A stretch of 15,659 bases of DNA from Nitrososphaeria archaeon (GTDB taxonomy: Archaea > Thermoproteota > Nitrososphaeria > JACIWG01): positions 1 to 15,659 of the forward strand of contig JBEKIG010000028.1 in NCBI GenBank assembly GCA_050011875.1, given 5' to 3'. Shown piece after piece: positions 1-8,787 of this stretch (positions are counted from its first letter, which is position 1; each line of letters opens with the position of its first letter). A program made the translations under genes and the position numbers. Under the pieces are notes generated by a model. It worked only from the letters and a program-made list of their open reading frames with translations. It was not told the DNA's origin and made no database searches.

Positions 1-119
1 TTGAACTATAAATGTTGCAAACAATAAAACAAAGTATTTGTAAGACATATTTATCCCTATTGTTTATGGGTTGTTACTCGATCATTTTATTTTAATATCA
101 CTAGCGATATACTGCAAAC

Positions 120-213
120 AGCGTGAGGGTAGAATCGCTATCTACATTCAGCGTTTAAGCAAGATCGCTCCTTGCATTCGGGTGTTATTTGCCTAGGCCA
201 TCACCCAGTCTAG
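120..213 (+). ncRNA. Three tandem hairpin/pseudoknot-like units in the capsid 5' leader
   Basis: Stems GTAGA/TCTAC (129-145), GCAAG/CTTGC (159-175) and CTAGGC/GTCTAG (193-213). Loop segments CGCT, CGCT and CACCC are complementary to upstream AGCG (120), AGCG (150) and GGGTG (180). Units are linked by ATTC. Confidence 0.6.
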
Positions 214-254
214 AAAGTCTATATACTTCATGGTTCTTTATAGGAGCATTAAAA

Positions 255-2991
255 ATGCCTATAACAACTACAAGCACATTGCCAGCGCCTAAACCAAGCT
301 GAATACGGGCGCGTTAAACTAGGAATGATTACATGGAAAGTCTAAACATAAATACGAAACTCTGTTATACTGATATAGGTACGGCAGACTATTTCATTTG
401 GGAGTATTTATGCAAGATAACCAGAGGCAAACGCATACAGATTGGGCGTATATTGCAGGAATTATGGATTCTGATGGGTGTTTTATGATAACGAGACATA
501 AAAGAAAAACACAAAGAAAAAATTATCCTCATATGGTTGAGGGATGGTCTTGGACTTATATGCCCTCAGTTAAAGTAGCTATGATAAATCACGAAGCGAT
601 AGAATTTATTGTAGAAAAAACCCAAGCAGGTACGTGTAATCTTTATGGCGCTCGACCTTCGAGACCCAATTCTCATCCGATGTATGAATGGGGAATAAGA
701 AATCGCAAGCAGATAGTACCATTTATTGAAAATATAATGCCTTACTTAAAAGTTAAAAAACAACGGGCGCAATTCTTATTAGATTACTGTAAAAAAGCAC
801 AATATTTGGAAACTAATGCTGCTAAATATTATGGGTTAAGTAAGGAAGAGCTAGAATACAGGGAAAGTTCTTATCAACAGATGAAAGAACTCAATCGTAT
901 TAAAGTAGCCGCAACGACTAAGTTTCCTGGGCCCGTGAGGGCATGCGATAGTCTTATCTCATAAGAAATTATGAGAGGGAGGAATAACAAGACTCTCCGC
1001 TGCGATGCCGATAGCTAACATGATACACAAAATTCGCAGTCATCAAGTAAAAGAGTGGTGCAGCAATCATTCAGTTATAAATTGCTGTCAGTGCCAGTGC
1101 CTAAACTTATTGGGCACTTAAAATCTTCTCTGATAGACTTGGAAGCCGAAGTGGTATTTAACTAACCGGTAACAAGGGGCAAGATTATGAATAAAGATAA
1201 TAAACGCGAAAAATGCGATGGTGTAGACATGGCAACAGGGTTGAGAGATTGTTGGAATTTCTTTTGCAAAAAAGATCACACTTGGCGTTTTTACGAACTT
1301 CATAATCAGCCTGAACGTAGCAAGCGAGAAGACTCTTGCAAGAAATTTCATTGTAAGAGATGCGGTGCTCTGAACACGATTCGATAAGGTCGTGAGGGAT
1401 AAGTAGAGAAAGTCCCCGCCTAGAAATAGGTCATAAAAGTAACAGATTGAATATGATCCACAAGATCCCAGCCATGCGTAAAAACATGCCTAGGAATGGT
1501 GGTACTACGCTTAGAATGAGACGATTGAGTTTAGTCGTCTTTAAATCTTCTCTAATTGACTTAGAAGCCTGAGTCCAAGGCGATAAGGGGCAAGCGCAAG
1601 CAGCCTGAACGACTTAACGAGAAGACCGAGGAAAAATGAAAAAAAGATTGAATTATAAATGTTTTTTCGATATATTATATATGAATTCATTTTGGCTGTT
1701 CCTTACGTCCAAAGTAAATTTAAAAGATATAACTAAGCTGTCAATGCAACCCTGACGGGCCGGCGACAGCTTTTTTTATTATTCAATTTTTCCTCGGATG
1801 CGAAAGTCTGAACTCGACAAATAGGGTTGTTGAAAGTCGAGAGGGAGATCCGAAGAGGTTTCCCCGCTTAAATAATAAGAGAAGATCGTGGGTTCGATTC
1901 CCACCAAGAAAAGCAAGATTTCTTGTAGCTGAGCGGTACAGCGCCTCATGTATTTAAGTCACAAAAGTAACAGATTGATAATCCGTTAAATACAGCTATG
2001 GTGCCATTAGGGACTACAGGGGTTACGCCTCCTGCGCAGCAATTGACGGCCATAGACATCGATGCGAAAATATCATTTTATGGGACGTTTGTTCAGCTCA
2101 ATGAACAAGTTACATTACAGAACCAAGATCCCGTTTTGAACGAATGCGCCGCACGTTTGGGTGTATCACTCCGTTAATGCAGACTGAAGATCAATTGACT
2201 AGAGATATGCTGGCAGCTACAGCAGGCTTTATCAATTGTACTGGCGGAGTTAACGGTAAGTGATTATTGCCGTTAAAAAATCTCTGGTGATTGACTTGGA
2301 CCCCGAAGCTTAAGAGCCGGAAACAAGGCGGAAGGCGAGAGCCACCGTGAACGACTAAGTCCAGAGAAGCCGAAAGGCTAAGCGATAGTCTGATCTCATG
2401 CGATAAGTATGAGAGGGCGATCCGAAGAGGTTGCCCCGCCTAGAAATAGGTCATAAAAGTAACAGATTTATGGATAATCCTACAGAGATCACCTTGCAAG
2501 ACTGCGATACTGTAACTCAAACTCTTTTGACTAACAATGCTTATACCATCATGGATAACATTGAAGGTGAAAATAAGTTCGGTACAGCTCCAGTCCGTGA
2601 TGCGTATTTTGCAATGACAAGTACGAAGTTAACTTCTGACTTGAACAACGTTAATACGTTCATACAGAAGAACCAATATCCTGCTCCAATGAATGCATTG
2701 CGTTCAGAGTGGGGCGCTGTGGGTAACCTTCGTTTCCTTGTCAGCTCAATCGGCTCAGTAACGCCTGCAGCTTCTGCCAACAGTGCAGATGTGTATAACA
2801 TCTTCTGCGTCGGCATGGAGGCCTATGCGTGCGTTGAACAAGACGGATATAGCGCATCTTTCATCTACCGTCCACCTATATATGACGGCCCACTCGCGCT
2901 TAACGCTTCAGTCGGATACAAATTCGCTGAAGTTCCTCGTATTACGAACGATCTGTTTATTATTAACCTTCGTGCAACCAAGAGATTTTAA
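255..2991 (+). CDS. Major capsid protein (N4 gp56-like, HK97 fold), spliced: join(255..290,1058..1102,1450..1525,1978..2174,2180..2257,2473..2991), 316 aa
   Basis: SD AGGAG 242-246, ATG 255. Joined exons read MPITTTSTLPAP|VQQSFSYKLLSVPVP|NMIHKIPAMRKNMPRNGGTTLRMRR(Y)|NPLNTAMVPLG...NEQVTLQNQDPVLNECAARLGVSLR|QTEDQLTRDMLAATAGFINCTGGVNG|DNPTEIT...EWGAVGNLRF...RATKRF. Total 951 nt, in frame. Every junction is U|...G|. Family assignment is from recalled sequence resemblance. Confidence 0.88.
363..371 (+). promoter_or_regulatory. Possible extended -10 promoter for the intron endonuclease
   Basis: TGnTATACT about 40 nt upstream of ATG 410. No convincing -35. Confidence 0.4.
410..964 (+). CDS. Single-motif LAGLIDADG homing endonuclease (184 aa; the ORF track starts at TTG 398)
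   Basis: Motif WAYIAGIMDSDGCF and C-terminal 'IMPYLKVKKQRAQFLLDYC' typical of the family. SD GGAG 401-404 before ATG 410. Located inside intron 1. Confidence 0.88.
   Translation: MQDNQRQTHTDWAYIAGIMDSDGCFMITRHKRKTQRKNYPHMVEGWSWTYMPSVKVAMINHEAIEFIVEKTQAGTCNLYGARPSRPNSHPMYEWGIRNRKQIVPFIENIMPYLKVKKQRAQFLLDYCKKAQYLETNAAKYYGLSKEELEYRESSYQQMKELNRIKVAATTKFPGPVRACDSLIS
1103..1449 (+). ncRNA. Group I intron 2 (347 nt)
   Basis: P1 AGTGCCT(1096-1102)/GGGCACT(1112-1118) with U-G. P3 TCTTCTC(1124-1130)/GAGAAGA(1326-1332). Variant P7 G(T)AGCA(1317-1322)/TGCTC(1366-1370). P8 1333-1341/1351-1359. Terminal G1449. Confidence 0.85.
1187..1387 (+). CDS. Small Cys/His-rich putative zinc-binding protein inside intron 2 (66 aa)
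   Basis: AAGGGG upstream. Pattern CxxxHxW...CKRCG, reminiscent of DUF1660-type small phage proteins. Starts in the P6 extension (stem 1183-1191/1299-1307) and reads through the core. Confidence 0.45.
   Translation: MNKDNKREKCDGVDMATGLRDCWNFFCKKDHTWRFYELHNQPERSKREDSCKKFHCKRCGALNTIR
1636..1755 (+). CDS. Possible 39-aa peptide in the P8 loop of intron 3
   Basis: GAGG SD then ATG; MKKRLNYKCFFDILYMNSFWLFLTSKVNLKDITKLSMQP*. No recognisable homology, and the SD is sequestered in P8. Confidence 0.25.
   Translation: MKKRLNYKCFFDILYMNSFWLFLTSKVNLKDITKLSMQP
1735..1777 (+). terminator. Intrinsic-terminator-like hairpin within intron 3
   Basis: AAGCTGTC(1735-1742)/GACAGCTT(1765-1772) enclosing CCC-TGAC-GGG, with a 7-T run at 1771-1777. 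Confidence 0.45.
1876..1950 (+). ncRNA. Circularly permuted tRNA-like domain (3' half before 5' half) in the P9 region of intron 3
   Basis: Variable loop AGATC; T arm GTGGG-TTCGATT-CCCAC (1888-1904); acceptor 3' strand CAAGAAA (1905-1911); linker AGCAAGA; acceptor 5' strand TTTCTTG (1919-1925); TA; D arm GCTG-AGCGGTA-CAGC (1928-1942). No anticodon loop. Confidence 0.8.
2175..2179 (+). other. 5-nt TAATG interruption of the capsid frame (candidate micro-intron or stop-start split)
   Basis: CTC CGT|TAATG|CAG ACT. Removal restores ...VSLR-QTEDQL... It follows U and ends in G, and is bulged from a 10-bp helix with 2241-2250. Confidence 0.8.
2258..2472 (+). ncRNA. Group I intron 4 (215 nt, compact, no ORF)
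   Basis: P1 TTAACGGT(2250-2257)/GCCGTTAA(2269-2276) with U-G. P10 GATTATT(2262-2268)/GATAATC(2473-2479). P3 TCTCTGG(2281-2287)/CCAGAGA(2361-2367). P7 GACTA(2353-2357)/TAGTC(2386-2390). P8 AGCC-GAAA-GGCT. Terminal G2472. Confidence 0.92.
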
Positions 2992-3000
2992 GGAGATATC

Positions 3001-3975
3001 ATGGTTAATATATTCAATGGTTCTTTTACTTCTACTGGTTCTGCTCAGTTTCTCAATATTCGTGGCGGCCTCGATACTATCGAAGTCTGGAACATGACAG
3101 AGTTGGCTGCTGCTAATGACAGCCATGGCGTAAGCTATGCATGGAATCTTGGCATGGGCTACAATGATGCTATTGTTACAATGCGTAACGCAGCAGCAAC
3201 TGCAGTCAATGCTACGACAGCAGCAACACTTACTGTTCCAGGATTTATAGTTTACGATGCTTCTACTCAAGTCAATGGCCCAACAATAGCCACTACTGAC
3301 TTTGGTACAACTGCTCATGTCGTGCTAACTGGCAATACTACCGGCGTATCAGTCGGCAGTATTATCCGTTTGCAGGAAATGACAGGTGCAAACCAAGTTA
3401 ATGGTATGGACTATACGGTTACAGCAGTTAACCCAGGCGTCAGTATGACTCTCGGCTATACTCCTGTAACTGTTGCAGCTGCTGGTGCCGGTGCCTATTT
3501 CACGGTGCCATTCAATAAGTGGTATCCACAAACCCGTTATATTGCATCCATATCACAAGCAGCGCAAGCTGTTGTTGTGTTCACTGTAACGCATGGATAT
3601 CAAGTAGGACAAGCGATTCGCTTCCATGTCGGATCATTTAACGGCATGAAGCAGATTGATGGGTTAGAGGGCAATATTGTTGCTGTTAATACAACTACCA
3701 ACTCGGTAACTGTTGATATTAATACAACAGCATTTACAGCTTTCGTATGGCCTACTACTGCAGTAGCCGCTGCACCGTTTACTCAAGCATATGTTAACCC
3801 GATTGGCATGGATAGTTCTTTGGCGTTAGCCCAAGTACCACCTGCTGATACATTAACTGATGCTATGCAGAATATCATGACCACAGGAATTATCCTTGGT
3901 GCTGGTATTACAAGCCCTGCAGGATCTGTAAACGACGTCATCTATTGGCGCGCTACTAGTTCTTTTAACCTTTAA
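3001..3975 (+). CDS. Virion structural protein (possible capsid decoration), beta-rich FCCH-like modules
   Basis: Strong SD AAGGAG. Immediately follows the capsid gene. Ala/Thr/Val/Gly-rich, with motif 'IASISQAAQAVVVFTVTHGYQVGQAIRF...GMKQIDG'. Confidence 0.7.
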   Translation: MVNIFNGSFTSTGSAQFLNIRGGLDTIEVWNMTELAAANDSHGVSYAWNLGMGYNDAIVTMRNAAATAVNATTAATLTVPGFIVYDASTQVNGPTIATTDFGTTAHVVLTGNTTGVSVGSIIRLQEMTGANQVNGMDYTVTAVNPGVSMTLGYTPVTVAAAGAGAYFTVPFNKWYPQTRYIASISQAAQAVVVFTVTHGYQVGQAIRFHVGSFNGMKQIDGLEGNIVAVNTTTNSVTVDINTTAFTAFVWPTTAVAAAPFTQAYVNPIGMDSSLALAQVPPADTLTDAMQNIMTTGIILGAGITSPAGSVNDVIYWRATSSFNL

Positions 3976-4019: not shown

Positions 4020-4439
4020 ATGGAAGTTGCAGCACAAACCACAGATTATACAAAGAAACCAGCTAAATCAGACAAAAAGGTCAATCTCAAGTACCAACAT
4101 GATAAAGATCGCGAACCAGTTCGTGGTATCTTCAGATTCTATGAATGTGCCGGCGCTCCACTCAGTTTTGTTTATAAGGCATATAAAGAAGATGATGTTG
4201 AACGATTTGATTTAACAGATGGTTGTATTTATACAATACCGCTAGGAGTTGCGAGACATCTTAACAAGTCTGGACGTTATCCTATACATGCATTCAAACA
4301 AGATGAAGCAGGAAATGTAAGTTCCCATATTGGCAAGAAAGTTGCTCGTTATGGGTTCCAGAGTTTGGAATTTGTTGATATCTCAGATGTAGAAGCCACT
4401 GGTTCTGACGGTATCATCGAAGTAACCGAGGCTCCATAA
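4020..4439 (+). CDS. Hypothetical phage protein (139 aa)
   Basis: SD AGGAG precedes ATG 4020; the track start at 3981 lies in the hairpin. The stop overlaps the next start (TAATG 4437-4441). Confidence 0.75.
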   Translation: MEVAAQTTDYTKKPAKSDKKVNLKYQHDKDREPVRGIFRFYECAGAPLSFVYKAYKEDDVERFDLTDGCIYTIPLGVARHLNKSGRYPIHAFKQDEAGNVSSHIGKKVARYGFQSLEFVDISDVEATGSDGIIEVTEAP

Positions 4440-4807
4440 TGGCTGAACCATTAATTCCTGCGTATCCTCATCCTCAATTTCAACCTGCAATGCGCATCAT
4501 AACCGCCATTACCAATGGCTTTCCTGCTGTAGTAACTACTTCTTTTGCCCATAATTACTTAACAGGACTCGTCGTCCGTCTAGATATACCAGATGATTAT
4601 GGCATGGTGCAAGCAAATCAGCAATTCGGCCCGATAACTGTACTCAGTGATACAACATTTTCTATACCAATAGATACAACTTTTTTTGATGCTTTTGTGG
4701 TTCCTTCATCGGCTGTAATCTCCACATTAGCACAGGCTGTTCCAATGGCTGAAGTAAGTTCGCAATTATATCAGGCTGTGCGCGATGTTGCACCATATAT
4801 ATATTAG
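4439..4807 (+). CDS. Small virion protein with FCCH-like beta module
   Basis: 'IITAITNGFPAVVTTSFAHNYLTGLVVRL...GMVQAN' resembles the module in 3001..3975. Translationally coupled to the upstream gene. Confidence 0.7.
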   Translation: MAEPLIPAYPHPQFQPAMRIITAITNGFPAVVTTSFAHNYLTGLVVRLDIPDDYGMVQANQQFGPITVLSDTTFSIPIDTTFFDAFVVPSSAVISTLAQAVPMAEVSSQLYQAVRDVAPYIY

Positions 4808-5889: not shown

Positions 5890-6474
5890 ATGGCTTACAT
5901 AGCAAATATTCCAGCAGCTGCCGATCAGATATCAGCTTCGCAGGGACAGATTCAGGGCAACTTTCAGTCTATCGGTACTGTATTTGATCAGAACCATGTA
6001 GATTTTAATGCCGGTGCAGGAACAGCAGGACAACATACATTCGTGCAACTACAGCCTCAAGCGCCAACTCCTGCTTTTGCAGGTATTCCAGGATTCTGGG
6101 CTAGCACTGCGGCAGGCAATCCTATTATGGCGCATTCTGCTGCGGGAATTGATTTTGATATTACAACATTAGTTAATTCTATAGTTACTGGCGGTATAGG
6201 CCAAGGTTCTCTCACATTGCCTTGTGGATTGATTGTTAAATTTGGCAAAAATCAAGGTTCTGGGACTGGGATAGATACTATAACTTTCACTAATCCATTT
6301 TCTGCAAATGGTCAATGTGCAGCATTCGTAAGCGTTATATCTACTAATATGCCTGCAATATCTAATGCGGCAGTTTATTCATTGACCAATACAACATTGC
6401 GAGCAAAAGCAACTAACTATGCAGGCACTGCTTATAATAATGCCTATTATTATTGGTTTGCTGTAGGTGTATAA
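5890..6474 (+). CDS. Putative short tail fibre-like protein
   Basis: SD AAGGA. C-terminal 'LTLPCGLIVKFG...TITFTNPF...YWFAVGV' resembles gp53-like fibre tip domains. Confidence 0.6.
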   Translation: MAYIANIPAAADQISASQGQIQGNFQSIGTVFDQNHVDFNAGAGTAGQHTFVQLQPQAPTPAFAGIPGFWASTAAGNPIMAHSAAGIDFDITTLVNSIVTGGIGQGSLTLPCGLIVKFGKNQGSGTGIDTITFTNPFSANGQCAAFVSVISTNMPAISNAAVYSLTNTTLRAKATNYAGTAYNNAYYYWFAVGV

Positions 6475-6483
6475 GGAGATATC

Positions 6484-8787
6484 GTGGCTTTTGACAGATT
6501 TTTAATCGCTCCGTTCTCTGAAGGTCTCAGGACGGATCTTGAACCTTGGCAGATTCCAGAGGAAAGTTTCGCTGAGCTTTATAATGCCTATGTATGGCGA
6601 GGCAGAGTGCGTAAACGCTTTGGGGGTCGATTGATGGGTACCGGTTCTACGGGAGCACTTACTGCGCCTTTGTTGTCCCGTTTTAGAATTAATCTTGGAA
6701 CAACTCCTATAGCGGCACCCATTGCATTGCCCGGTAATACATTTAATCCAGGGCAACAAGTATCTGTTGGCGACAATATATTTACAGTTATTACTGTAAC
6801 TGCTGGTGCAAATGCCATGCTTTCTACTAATGCTGCCGCAACTGGAACAATAACTATTACAGCGGGCCCTCCTATAACAGCTACATTTACCGCGACAATT
6901 CCAGGAATACCAGCAGGCACAGCTATTTTCTTCTATCCAGGTCTACCTGTTATGGGATTGACTAACTATGCTACAGGGCCAGTAAATGATCATCCATCGA
7001 TAGGATTTGACACTCGATTCGTGTATCAATTTACCAATGGCTGGGACCGTCTTGGCGTGGCGCAGAATGTTATATTCCATGGGCAAGATTATGATTTCTT
7101 TTGGACATGCAATTGGACTGGCATTGATGATGCTGCAGTAGTTCTATTTGTGACGAACTATAATGCAACAGTCTCTGGAAATCCAGCAGCAACCGATGAT
7201 CCAATGTGGTATTATAATGCAGTAGCTGCTGTGCCGTGGGTTCAATTCGCGCCGCAAGTTATTGTAGCCAATGGAGCAATTTTACAGCAGAATATAGTTT
7301 CAGCTCAGATAATATTGCCCTTTAAAGATCGCCTAGTGCTGCTTAATACTATTGAACAGACAACTACGGGTGGAGGATCTCCGACGCTCGTAAATACTCA
7401 ATATAAAGCACGCTGCAGATATTCACACAACGGTAGCCCATTAGATTCAAATGCCTTTATCCAGGTCAACAATACTGGCTTTGACGGCGGTGGTTATATT
7501 GATGCAGCTACCGATGAGGCAATAGTATCGGCAGAATATATTAAAGATCGCTTAATCGTTTATTTCGAACGTAGTACATGGGAACTAGCCTATACGGGCA
7601 ACCAAGTATTACCTTTCTTATGGCAACAAATCAATACAGAGCTGGGTGCAGAATCAGTATTTGCCACAGTACCTTTCGATAAAGCAGTACTCGGTATAGG
7701 CAATACGGGTGTGCATGCCTGCTCAGGCGCAAATGTTGAACGTATAGATACCAAGATTCCTGACCAGATATTCCAGATTGCCAACAAGTCAGAAGGGGTT
7801 CAGCGAGTTGTAGGTATCCGTGATTACTATGTAGAGATGGTCTATTGGACCTTCCCTAATTCTGCAGAATCTGCAACATTTAAATACCCTAATCAAGTGC
7901 TTATTTACAACTATAAGACTAATTCTTGGGCCTTTAATGACGATTGTATAACCATGTTCGGCTATTATGAGCAGCAACTAGGTACAACATGGTCTTCATT
8001 AACGATGCCTTGGAGCGACAACAATTCAACGTGGGGTTCAGGAGTCCAACAATCAGAATTTAGACAAGTAATCGCAGGTAATCAACAGGGCTATGTATTT
8101 ATTGTAGATCCTGATACGCCTAATAATGCTCCGGTAATGTCTATAACAAACATTGTAGCTACTGGTACTAACAATATATTAACACTTACCGTTATAGATC
8201 ATACTCTGCAAACACAAGTAGATAATAATGGCGATTATATTTATATAACTAATTGCCAGGGAGTAACAGGTATCAACGATAATATATATCCGGTGCAAGC
8301 CGTAGTTGATTCTAATACTATTCAGATTGCAGTTCCTGGTTATGCAAGTACATATTCAGGCGGTGGCAGTATAACGCGAGTCTCTATGATCGATATACTT
8401 ACAAAACAGTTCAATCCATATATGGATCAAGGACGTGATGTTTATATAGCTAAAATAGATTTTGGTGTTTTAGCAACAAGTTCAGGAGAACTTACAGTCG
8501 ATTATTCTCCTTCTGCTACGCCATTGTCTATGGTAAAAGATGGTGCCACTACTGGCACACTCATGGGTACAAGCGTATTGCAAACATATGCATATCCTGA
8601 TGTGCCTATAGAATATACATCTACTAGACTTTGGCACCCATTGTATTTCCAAGTTGATGGTGAATGTATACAATTCGAGATATATCTATCTCAAGCGCAG
8701 ATAACTAACACATTAATAGCGTTCCAAGATTTCTGGCTAGAAGGAATGGTTTTGCATTGTATGCCTGTTAGATCGAGACTATCATAA
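6484..8787 (+). CDS. Putative tail nozzle / DNA stabilisation protein (P22 gp10 / T7 gp12 analogue)
   Basis: 767 aa, SD AAGGAG with GTG start. Beta-propeller-like repeats (FKDRLVLL / IKDRLIVYF / VLIYNYKTNSW). Follows the adaptor gene. Confidence 0.65.
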   Translation: MAFDRFLIAPFSEGLRTDLEPWQIPEESFAELYNAYVWRGRVRKRFGGRLMGTGSTGALTAPLLSRFRINLGTTPIAAPIALPGNTFNPGQQVSVGDNIFTVITVTAGANAMLSTNAAATGTITITAGPPITATFTATIPGIPAGTAIFFYPGLPVMGLTNYATGPVNDHPSIGFDTRFVYQFTNGWDRLGVAQNVIFHGQDYDFFWTCNWTGIDDAAVVLFVTNYNATVSGNPAATDDPMWYYNAVAAVPWVQFAPQVIVANGAILQQNIVSAQIILPFKDRLVLLNTIEQTTTGGGSPTLVNTQYKARCRYSHNGSPLDSNAFIQVNNTGFDGGGYIDAATDEAIVSAEYIKDRLIVYFERSTWELAYTGNQVLPFLWQQINTELGAESVFATVPFDKAVLGIGNTGVHACSGANVERIDTKIPDQIFQIANKSEGVQRVVGIRDYYVEMVYWTFPNSAESATFKYPNQVLIYNYKTNSWAFNDDCITMFGYYEQQLGTTWSSLTMPWSDNNSTWGSGVQQSEFRQVIAGNQQGYVFIVDPDTPNNAPVMSITNIVATGTNNILTLTVIDHTLQTQVDNNGDYIYITNCQGVTGINDNIYPVQAVVDSNTIQIAVPGYASTYSGGGSITRVSMIDILTKQFNPYMDQGRDVYIAKIDFGVLATSSGELTVDYSPSATPLSMVKDGATTGTLMGTSVLQTYAYPDVPIEYTSTRLWHPLYFQVDGECIQFEIYLSQAQITNTLIAFQDFWLEGMVLHCMPVRSRLS

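Follow-up and report, generated by a model that had tools for sequence, protein, structure and literature searches.

Organization of the capsid locus

The contig JBEKIG010000028.1 (C28; 15,659 nucleotides, nt), which belongs to a 2.64-Mb metagenome bin of 119 contigs and is referred to here, in its whole length, as the window, harbors between positions 255 and 2991 the major capsid gene of an uncultured tailed phage, split into six exons by five breaks of 767, 347, 452, 5 and 215 nt, only four of which are intron-sized. The exons were located by a tblastn search with P0004, an intronless homologue of 316 amino acids (aa), which has six colinear pieces on the + strand of the window, and by the subsequent refinement of the junctions; the joined frame was then assembled by coordinates (Table 1). 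It encodes a product of 316 aa with a terminal stop and no internal one, identical to P0004 in 304 of 316 positions and aligned to it without gaps. An earlier note on this DNA, made from the sequence alone, had listed exons of 36, 45, 76, 197, 78 and 519 nt, had estimated that about 1.8 kb of the 2.7-kb locus is intervening sequence, and had made its reading dependent on a colinear alignment of the joined protein with intronless capsid homologues. The exon lengths were recovered exactly after refinement, the exons sum to 951 nt and the breaks to 1786 of 2737 nt, and the alignment is the gap-free one just described.

The gene encodes an N4-gp56 family major capsid protein with the HK97 fold, as the assignment to a major capsid gene in the earlier note had anticipated. 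The family and fold analyses were run on P0004 and its relatives, the joined window product being judged through its identity to P0004. P0004 matches TIGR04387 (N4-gp56 family major capsid protein) with an E-value of 5.1e-41 and 141 bits (cutoff 60), along residues 4-313 and profile positions 1-323 of 324. An AlphaFold model computed from an alignment of 72 diverse full-length relatives reached a predicted local distance difference test score (pLDDT) of 91.7, superseding a model from 21 near-identical sequences with a pLDDT of 32, and its best structural matches are the capsids of phages B2 and N4 (E about 1e-20, template-modelling scores of 0.74-0.77). By sequence, the capsid profile gave nothing better among solved structures than E 0.057 to the B2 capsid.

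The only capsid-like open reading frame (ORF) visible to gene callers is that of 186 aa at 2431..2991, which aligns with the major head profile phrog_1357 (356 positions) from position 176 to 300. A protein search with this fragment returned 2428 relatives at E<=1e-3 among 2458 candidates; among the best 120 of these 2428, several of which are labelled "N4-gp56 family major capsid protein", 21 are 315-316 aa long and the remainder 146-288 aa, and the entries of 186-189 aa correspond to the window ORF 2431..2991. The expectation that only the C-terminal fragment would be reported for such genes is thus borne out.

Table 1. Coordinates of the exons, introns, insert and intron-borne elements of the capsid locus (window positions)
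Feature	Position	Strand	Description
Exon 1	255..290	+	36 nt, aa 1-12, ends in T; 12/12 identical to P0004 (tblastn)
Intron 1	291..1057	+	767 nt; guide GGGCGC (307-312) pairs with exon end GCGCCT; ends in G
Intron 1 helices	P3 319-325/924-930; P7 916-920/949-953; P8 931-942; P9 957-976	+	
Intron-1 ORF	398..964	+	188 aa; single-motif LAGLIDADG homing endonuclease, I-CreI/I-MsoI type
Exon 2	1058..1102	+	45 nt, aa 13-27; tblastn and junction refinement
Intron 2	1103..1449	+	347 nt; guide GGGCACT (1112-1118) pairs with exon end AGTGCCT; ends in G
Intron 2 helices	P3 1124-1130/1326-1332; P4 1138-1141/1173-1176; P6 1177-1180/1309-1312; P7 1319-1322/1366-1369	+	
Intron-2 ORF	1187..1387	+	66 aa, Cys-rich; begins in P6 loop, reads through P7, P3', P8 and P9
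Exon 3	1450..1525	+	76 nt, aa 28-52 and first base of Tyr53; unique junction solution
Intron 3	1526..1977	+	452 nt; guide GTCGTCTT (1534-1541) pairs with exon end GAGACGAT; ends in G
Intron 3 helices	P3 1546-1552/1619-1625; P8 1626-1631/1792-1797; P7 1611-1614/1805-1808	+	P8 holds a 160-nt insert
tRNA-like (YrlA-like) module	1868..1960	+	P9 periphery of intron 3; T-arm GTGGGTTCGATTCCCAC, hairpin, D-arm-like stem in closing stem
Exon 4	1978..2174	+	197 nt, rest of Tyr53 to Arg118; ends in TCACTCCGT
5-nt frame-breaking insert	2175..2179	+	TAATG, between Arg118 (CGT) and Gln119 (CAG)
Exon 5	2180..2257	+	78 nt, aa 119-144; synonymous variation, protein conserved across nine lineages
Candidate external guide	2241..2250	+	in exon 5; GCGGAGT (2244-2250) complementary to exon-4 end ACTCCGT, U2174.G2244
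Intron 4	2258..2472	+	215 nt, minimal, ORF-less; guide GCCGTTAA (2269-2276) pairs with exon end TTAACGGT; ends in G
Intron 4 helices	P3 2281-2287/2361-2367; P4 2295-2298/2324-2327; P6 2329-2331/2345-2347; P7 2353-2357/2386-2390	+	
Intron 4 3' helices	P8 2368-2379; P9 2394-2414	+	GAAA loop in P8
Exon 6	2473..2991	+	519 nt including stop, aa 145-316; tblastn 96.5% identity, E 2.9e-109; phrog_1357 major head protein

Four related group I introns

The four long inserts follow a T and end in G. Introns 1, 2 and 4 allow two to four equally good junction placements, exactly one of which obeys this rule, while the unique solution of intron 3 obeys it as well. A guide sits 9-16 nt into each intron and pairs with the last six to eight bases of the upstream exon, with a G opposite the final T, and the four introns have repeats in common with each other. 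Their relationship was analysed with an nhmmer profile and pair counts; the profile was built from eight short introns, intron 4 being its only member from the window. It retrieved intron 2 in its full length (E 1.5e-34), the 3' half of intron 1 (908-1003, E 6.9e-8) and two parts of intron 3 (1527-1632, E 3.4e-17; 1796-1872, E 8.4e-10), with no further match in the 2.64-Mb bin or in the 15.4 kb upstream in the phage.

In order to compare the introns with those of other capsid genes, 80 related loci were taken from viral contigs and their exons were mapped (288 of 295 pattern matches encoded relatives). Thirty-three loci are uninterrupted, 40 interrupted and seven partial, and the breaks fall at about twelve sites, among them codons 12/13, 27/28, 52/53, 88/89, 92-97, 104-105, 116-118, 144 and 147. 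The existence of intronless alleles in relatives implies that the introns are mobile now or were so formerly. Thirty-five distinct introns of the relatives were placed on one profile, and the 32 with a gap-free guide were used for testing guide specificity: the guide forms on average 6.75 contiguous pairs with its own exon and 1.6 with the exons of other sites, and a U.G pair stands at the cleavage site in all 32. Three low scores (one, one and two pairs, in L006 at site 92.67, L072 and L018) are due to misplaced or off-by-one junctions. Cells with standard pairs make up 96% in P3, 100% in P4, 98% in P6, 98% in P7 and 87% in P8 of the 35 introns, with compensatory changes that include, in P7, a double swap from CT/AG to GC/GC. 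The core helices follow the group I order P3-P4-P5-P6-P7-P3'-P8-P7', including the P3/P7 pseudoknot, and the joining segments GAAC (before P7) and ATGCGA (before P7') are conserved. In the alignment of the eight short introns (A1), 87.7% of the cells are paired against 70.4% after shuffling (none of 500 shuffles reached the observed value), 32 pairs changed on both sides, and slid partners gave at most 49%.

The check suggested in the earlier note, a search with group I covariance models, fails with Rfam, which gave no group I match at the gathering score, at E<=10 on positions 1-3200, or with intron 4 alone, and the support for group I was for this reason taken from the comparative analysis. 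The absence of an Rfam match at every threshold tried might suggest that the long inserts are not autonomous group I ribozymes, but another class of intervening sequence, or elements dependent on proteins or on each other. The placement of the introns in group I without a subgroup, the restriction of the helices placed in intron 1 to P3 and P7-P9 and the overlap of the ORFs of introns 1 and 2 with the ribozyme cores point in the same direction. On the other hand, guide specificity, the U.G pair, the terminal G, the order of the P3/P7 pseudoknot and covariation are all group I traits; in-frame stops and insert lengths rule out inteins; and neither a reverse transcriptase nor an element of group II size was found. 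A non-autonomous nature of the inserts is accordingly held to be very improbable. With their site-matched P1 helices, terminal G, covarying core and intronless alleles in relatives, the four breaks are, with very high confidence, related group I introns, as the earlier note had recognized. Each intron would align its own 5' exon end on the internal guide, with U.G at the cleavage site. Since the four introns stand in the coding frame, the mature mRNA would need four self-splicing events; the "four or five RNA processing events" of the earlier note is an apt wording, the fifth break being of 5 nt and unlike any known kind of intron. The idea in the same note that splicing could gate the assembly of virions is speculative.

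Among the 23 sequencing runs listed for the locus, none is recorded as RNA, and the contigs obtained from them were of DNA type; joints derived from the reads, such as that from 1622 to 2369, represent intron-core look-alikes on other contigs and not exon-exon joints. Short contigs with such look-alikes (of window positions 1119-1185, 1585-1622 and 2322-2400) occur in runs X1, X5, X9 and X17, with a word depth of up to 187 against 7-21 for the phage, so that related introns appear to be far more abundant in the peat samples than this phage.

A conserved frame-breaking insert at codon 118/119

The TAA of TAATG is a stop in the frame of exon 4, and its ATG lies in the frame of exon 5. The piece of the contig from 1419 to 2463 was found, with 0-1 differing letters and no indels, in four of four sequencing runs (2017, 2018, 2020 and 2025), whose independence is partial, since they may include the source sample; moreover, at least 0.98 of the sampled words of the locus are present in 20 runs. 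Three scans (a degenerate one of viral contigs, one of metagenome contigs, and one for the exon-5/intron-4 junction) disclosed nine distinct lineages with an insert at the same codon, namely TAATG in one, TATG in three, TTCG in two and TACG in three, while the metagenome-contig scan returned no insert of 6-31 nt at codon 118/119. All nine inserts can be placed so as to follow a T and end in G. Among five of these lineages (the window, L006, L120, L149 and L150), synonymous divergence (dS) ranges from 0.26 to more than 1, and the flanking protein is nearly identical. The near-identity of the protein on both sides in spite of a high dS indicates that both frames are translated and that the arrangement is old; from the comparison of these sequences, both flanks of the insert appear to be under purifying selection across nine diverged lineages.

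In all nine lineages, the insert lies 78 nt upstream of an intron at site 144 with the guide GCCGTTAA, and it is present in each of the ten capsid-gene contigs recovered by the exon-5/intron-4 junction search. Codon choice varies at 19 of 19 codons before Ser116, and the following TCA CTC CGT is invariant, as is GGC GGA GTT AAC GGT at the end of exon 5. The relative L047 harbors a full intron of 207 nt at the codon of the insert, with the guide GCGCAGT and the exon end CTGCGT. It is very likely, although held a little less firmly than the nature of the long introns, that the insert is conserved and must be either removed or skipped.

A 5-nt insert with an in-frame stop is an ordinary mark of a dead gene, and the contig comes from a metagenome bin; the locus might then be a pseudogene in a decaying prophage, part of a helper-dependent defective phage, or the product of an assembly error. 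The recurrence of identical letters in all four runs and of the locus in the 20 runs, the retention of a 4-5-nt insert at the same codon by nine lineages (with the dS among five of them reaching or exceeding 1 and a near-identical flanking protein) and the intactness of every other exon speak against a broken gene, which is the least credible of the explanations considered.

If the insert stayed in the mRNA, the ribosomes would have to frameshift or hop over 4-5 nt at high efficiency. The nine nucleotides preceding the insert are invariant at synonymous sites, and a stable hairpin of exon 5 follows it in predicted folds, both of which would suit a recoding signal. Bypassing encoded by mobile elements is known (bioRxiv 10.1101/2022.08.31.505936), and the correction of "savior indels" has been reviewed (PMC5009743). 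Nevertheless, the 4-nt forms would need a shift of +1 and the 5-nt form one of +2 or -1; no slippery motif of the X XXY YYZ or CUU-U type was found at CTC CGT T; and the triplet before Gln119 (ATG, TCG or ACG) is unlike the take-off codon CGT. A stop directly after take-off is present only in the TAATG form, and the combination of matched take-off and landing codons with a stop after take-off, which marks bypassing of the T4 gene 60 type, was not found. A search for tRNA genes was negative for the window (with ARAGORN), for L001 and for the 15.4 kb upstream of the window (L082). Finally, a capsid protein would need a near-quantitative efficiency. Recoding by the ribosome is thus regarded as unlikely. 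An exon-5 hairpin (CAATTR with YAATTG) fits eight of the nine insert lineages, but 58 distinct exon-5 sequences of other lineages gave no clear covariation, so that little weight is placed on it.

The sequence TAATG could also be read as a stop/start overlap, by which the capsid protein would be made as two chains of 118 and 199 aa that co-assemble. The TAA in the frame of exon 4 together with the ATG in the frame of exon 5 are expected in just 3 of 1024 random pentamers, and the three TATG lineages also put an ATG in the frame of exon 5. However, five of the nine lineages (two with TTCG, three with TACG) have no start codon at the junction, and no run resembling a Shine-Dalgarno sequence was seen before the GTG or TTG located five to seven codons upstream. 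In the capsid model with a pLDDT of 91.7, the break would also cut the long spine helix (residues 105-130) halfway along its length. Moreover, ATG or TTG is a common ending among introns of this family, and TAA opens the site-118 intron of L047; a TAA..TG sequence can therefore be an inherited by-product of intron ends. A two-chain capsid has about the same low probability as recoding.

A possible excision of the insert by intron 4

TAATG is too short to be a ribozyme. At the other end of exon 5, the candidate external guide (Table 1) abuts the 5' (exon) strand of the P1 helix of intron 4; next to the bases complementary to the end of exon 4, its CTG (2241-2243) is complementary to CAG, the start of exon 5. 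It is the only G[CT]GG[AG]G site common to the five lineages tested and is invariant across all nine, and its pairing with the end of exon 4 is part of the minimum free energy fold in four of five lineages, with a pair probability of 0.59-0.98. Leu117 is encoded by CTC where the partner is GCGGAGT, and by CTG in L047, which has its own guide GCGCAGT. The predicted geometry is that of a substrate for the second step of group I splicing: a guide holds the 5' exon, CAG/CTG supplies a short P10, and the junction has a G. On this ground, an excision of the insert by the core of intron 4 is proposed. TAATG would be the last remnant of an intron formerly located at codon 118/119; the end of exon 4 would pair with GCGGAGT in a P1-like helix with U.G at the cut, CAG/CTG would act as a short P10, and the last G of the insert would serve as the 3'-terminal G docked in the G-binding site of intron 4. 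That the insert is a core-less intron remnant excised by the neighboring ribozyme is put forward as a tentative proposal, to which slightly less than even weight is given.

Core-less mini-introns in related capsid genes

Much shorter introns exist elsewhere in the family. At codon 88/89 (FYG/TYV), inserts of 28-41 nt occur in 84 viral contigs and represent 64 distinct sequences (L014, L020, L042, L049, L063, L067, L069, L075, L076 and L199-L282; e.g., L063:3023-3050). All three remainders modulo 3 are represented among their lengths, the nine that were inspected closely contain in-frame stops, and 28 of the 64 distinct ones end in ATG, TTG or GTG. These mini-introns are far too short for a ribozyme core, and they retain the P1 hairpin (TACGGT with GCCGTA, with T opposite G) and P10. 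P1 and the final G were prescribed by the search pattern, but the third base of Thr89 and the guide base facing it were free to vary. In each of the 64 distinct mini-introns this pair is of the Watson-Crick type (A-T 7, C-G 44, G-C 4, T-A 9), which points to selection on base pairing in the RNA at a silent position.

The mini-intron is followed by a micro-exon of 9, 17 or 29 codons and then by a full intron core, starting 28-91 nt downstream, in 76 of the 84 contigs. Four further contigs contain the 3' half of a core only, 377-1201 nt downstream, and the other four have no downstream core, one of them with only 50 nt of sequence left. Full-size introns at codon 88/89 are found in distant capsid genes where the rest of the gene is uninterrupted (16 loci, 11 distinct). 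The simplest reading of these data would be that the mini-introns borrow the core of their neighbor, a tendency that TAATG would carry furthest. That the capsid family holds core-less group I introns removed by a neighbor's ribozyme, with TAATG as the 5-nt limit and the guide moved into the downstream exon, is suggested with somewhat more reserve than the excision of the insert itself.

In the capsid gene of a 12,810-nt viral contig (L120/L207), three kinds of interruption are combined, with five breaks in all: a mini-intron (codon 88), the 4-nt insert TATG (118) and three introns, namely a full one at 96.67, one of 1.1 kb at 144 and another near codon 224. The same intron family is located at the same YG/T codon in capsid genes that are 25-53% identical (L366, L380, L399, L408, L428 and others); the family therefore spans widely diverged capsid genes.

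Several points weigh against the proposed role of intron 4 and of neighboring cores in general. All the splice joints are predicted from the comparison of DNA sequences. The P1-like pairing of the insert is invariant and hence has no support from covariation; the third P10-like pair holds in five of the nine lineages, so that covariation does not support this pairing either. Three of the nine lineages were found through a pattern that fixes CACTCCGT and one through a pattern that fixes the guide; since the search patterns fixed one strand, the unbiased subsets consist of six lineages for the exon end and eight for the guide. It may be that the nine lineages constitute one clade; the association of the insert with the guide and the site-144 intron could then have been inherited once, as a single state. 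Uniformity of the exon bases adjoining introns could also be maintained by co-conversion during homing. At site 88, full-size introns of distant capsid lineages (25-53% identity) are contrasted with mini-introns of close ones. Lastly, a natural group I ribozyme excising a second, core-less segment was not found in the literature searched. All this considered, the explanation as a whole, i.e., four group I introns and an insert that would be an intron remnant excised by intron 4, is still judged to be moderately probable.

Genes and modules carried by the introns

The endonuclease encoded in intron 1 matches Pfam LAGLIDADG_1 with 23.5 bits (E 1.1e-4), just over the cutoff of 23.1, as well as phrog_5046 (E 1.5e-17) and, in the PDB, I-MsoI (E 2.4e-5); the 3' end of its ORF overlaps P7-P9 of the ribozyme. 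In the same intron, a stretch at 1002-1034 resembles the exon 2/3 junction (7 of 11 aa), but with E 0.62 within the window the resemblance is not significant and was dismissed. Library searches with the 66-aa product of the intron-2 ORF gave no family match; in relatives, different ORFs occupy its position, all reading the conserved core as ...QPERSKRED.... Introns 3 and 4 contain no endonuclease gene. The YrlA-like module of intron 3 scores 35.4 bits with Rfam YrlA (E 2.5e-5), below the gathering score of 69; ARAGORN called no tRNA at 1868-1960, and the module is confined to the window lineage among the related loci compared. The 160-nt insert in the P8 loop of the same intron (1626-1797) contains an ORF of 38 aa with GAGGA in front of it and, behind it on the capsid sense strand, a stem of 7 bp with a T-run (1736-1779); this insert may be what is left of a gene once carried by the intron together with a terminator of its own.

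The phage and its host

From position 3001 onward, the window carries co-directional phage structural genes, including those for a Gp53-like tail-fibre C-terminus (5890-6474) and for a 767-aa virion protein matching phrog_3287. The gene directly after the capsid gene (3001-3975, 324 aa) has no family match, and two downstream structural proteins (4439-4807 and 6484-8787) show sub-threshold matches to E1_FCCH beta-barrel domains (E 1.1e-3 and 4.4e-4). A scan of positions 1-3100 for promoters and terminators gave sites no more numerous than in shuffles. A near-identical IMG/VR contig reaches 15.1 kb upstream of the window and encodes an O-like replication initiator, RusA, the large terminase, a P22-type portal and a Peptidase_M15_4 endolysin (L082:14478-14900). 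The element is an uncultured tailed phage, roughly 35 kb long with a GC content of about 41%, with a P22-type portal, from peat and wetland metagenomes; in a phage collection it has no near DNA match and five distant protein matches only.

The bin looks archaeal, and the phage might accordingly be taken for an archaeal virus. This reading is countered by the peptidoglycan endolysin, RusA, the O-like initiator and the P22-type portal, by the intron profile, which has no other match in the bin, and by the presence of relatives in metagenome-assembled genomes of many unrelated phyla; those in which relatives of the capsid gene are binned are labelled Chlamydiota (4 of 16), Babeliales, Legionellales, Bacteroidota, Actinomycetota, Bathyarchaeia, Methanomicrobiales and others. 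The archaeal binning is probably noise or mis-binning around an abundant phage, whose host is probably a bacterium with peptidoglycan.

Comparison with known systems and significance

The earlier note had called multi-intron late genes less common, which understates the precedent, since multi-intron phage capsid genes are already in the literature. In the crAss-like Zeta-group phage cMAG OLRF01000054, the major capsid gene consists of five fragments with four intervening segments, three of which encode domains of the group I intron type, and the introns were recognized through endonuclease domains (Yutin et al. 2021, PMC7886860). The two genes are alike in being split and in the way this complicates gene calling; however, OLRF01000054 differs in phage order and capsid family, and a frame-breaking insert of a few bases does not occur in the passages on it (PMC7886860). 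Mycobacteriophage LittleE has a single intron in its major capsid gene, a highly expressed late gene whose splicing was confirmed by reverse transcription PCR; it is likewise preceded by U, ends in G and is associated with a LAGLIDADG-like ORF, although there the endonuclease gene lies on the opposite strand (Pope et al. 2013, PMC3706429). Several related introns around very short exons are known from orf142 of Staphylococcus phage Twort, where three group I introns flank, among others, an exon of 23 nt (against 45 and 76 nt in the window) and exon skipping occurs (PMC10136302). The latter shows that a group I intron can engage the splice sites of a neighboring one; unlike the present case, Twort has three introns instead of four, each with its own core, and the passages on orf142 do not present it as a capsid gene. 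Dense introns have also been reported in Jug phages (PMC12880540) and in Bastillevirinae (PMC11878797). The four introns in the capsid gene are thus a further case of a known phenomenon, and the conserved insert is the unexpected part.

Natural deletion derivatives of the group I intron in the lysin gene are reported to be spread among Streptococcus thermophilus phages (Foley et al. 2000). In these shortened forms the ribozyme core is reportedly retained, whereas it is absent from the mini-introns and the insert described here.

A closer likeness to the proposed mechanism is offered by the engineered spliceozymes, variants of the Tetrahymena ribozyme that excise an internal segment of 100 nt in trans (PMC4094466, PMC4509937). 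As proposed for TAATG and the mini-introns, a group I core removes a core-less segment, so that the chemistry would be feasible; in contrast, the spliceozymes are man-made and act in trans on segments of 100 nt. In the bypass of T4 gene 60, which shares with the insert the short non-coding stretch kept in the DNA of an essential phage gene and the link to a mobile element, the ribosome skips a gap of 50 nt between matched GGA take-off and landing codons (bioRxiv 10.1101/2022.08.31.505936, 10.1101/2024.12.09.627546); here the insert has 4-5 nt and no matched codons, and the related mini-introns keep P1 and P10 pairings. Neither natural core-less group I introns nor a conserved 4-5-nt insert at an intron site are described in the literature searched.

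Standard RNA libraries and gene callers miss the introns of these capsid genes, and most database entries of an abundant capsid family are fragments. Ribosome skipping, or a two-chain capsid cut in its spine helix, would, if true, be as unexpected as the removal of the insert by a ribozyme. If a neighboring ribozyme does remove the insert and the mini-introns, group I introns would have non-autonomous dependants, just as transposons have miniature inverted-repeat transposable elements (MITEs); one natural ribozyme core would serve two pairs of splice sites, a property so far only engineered, and the capsid family would harbor a natural counterpart of the spliceozymes, together with a parasitic class of introns.

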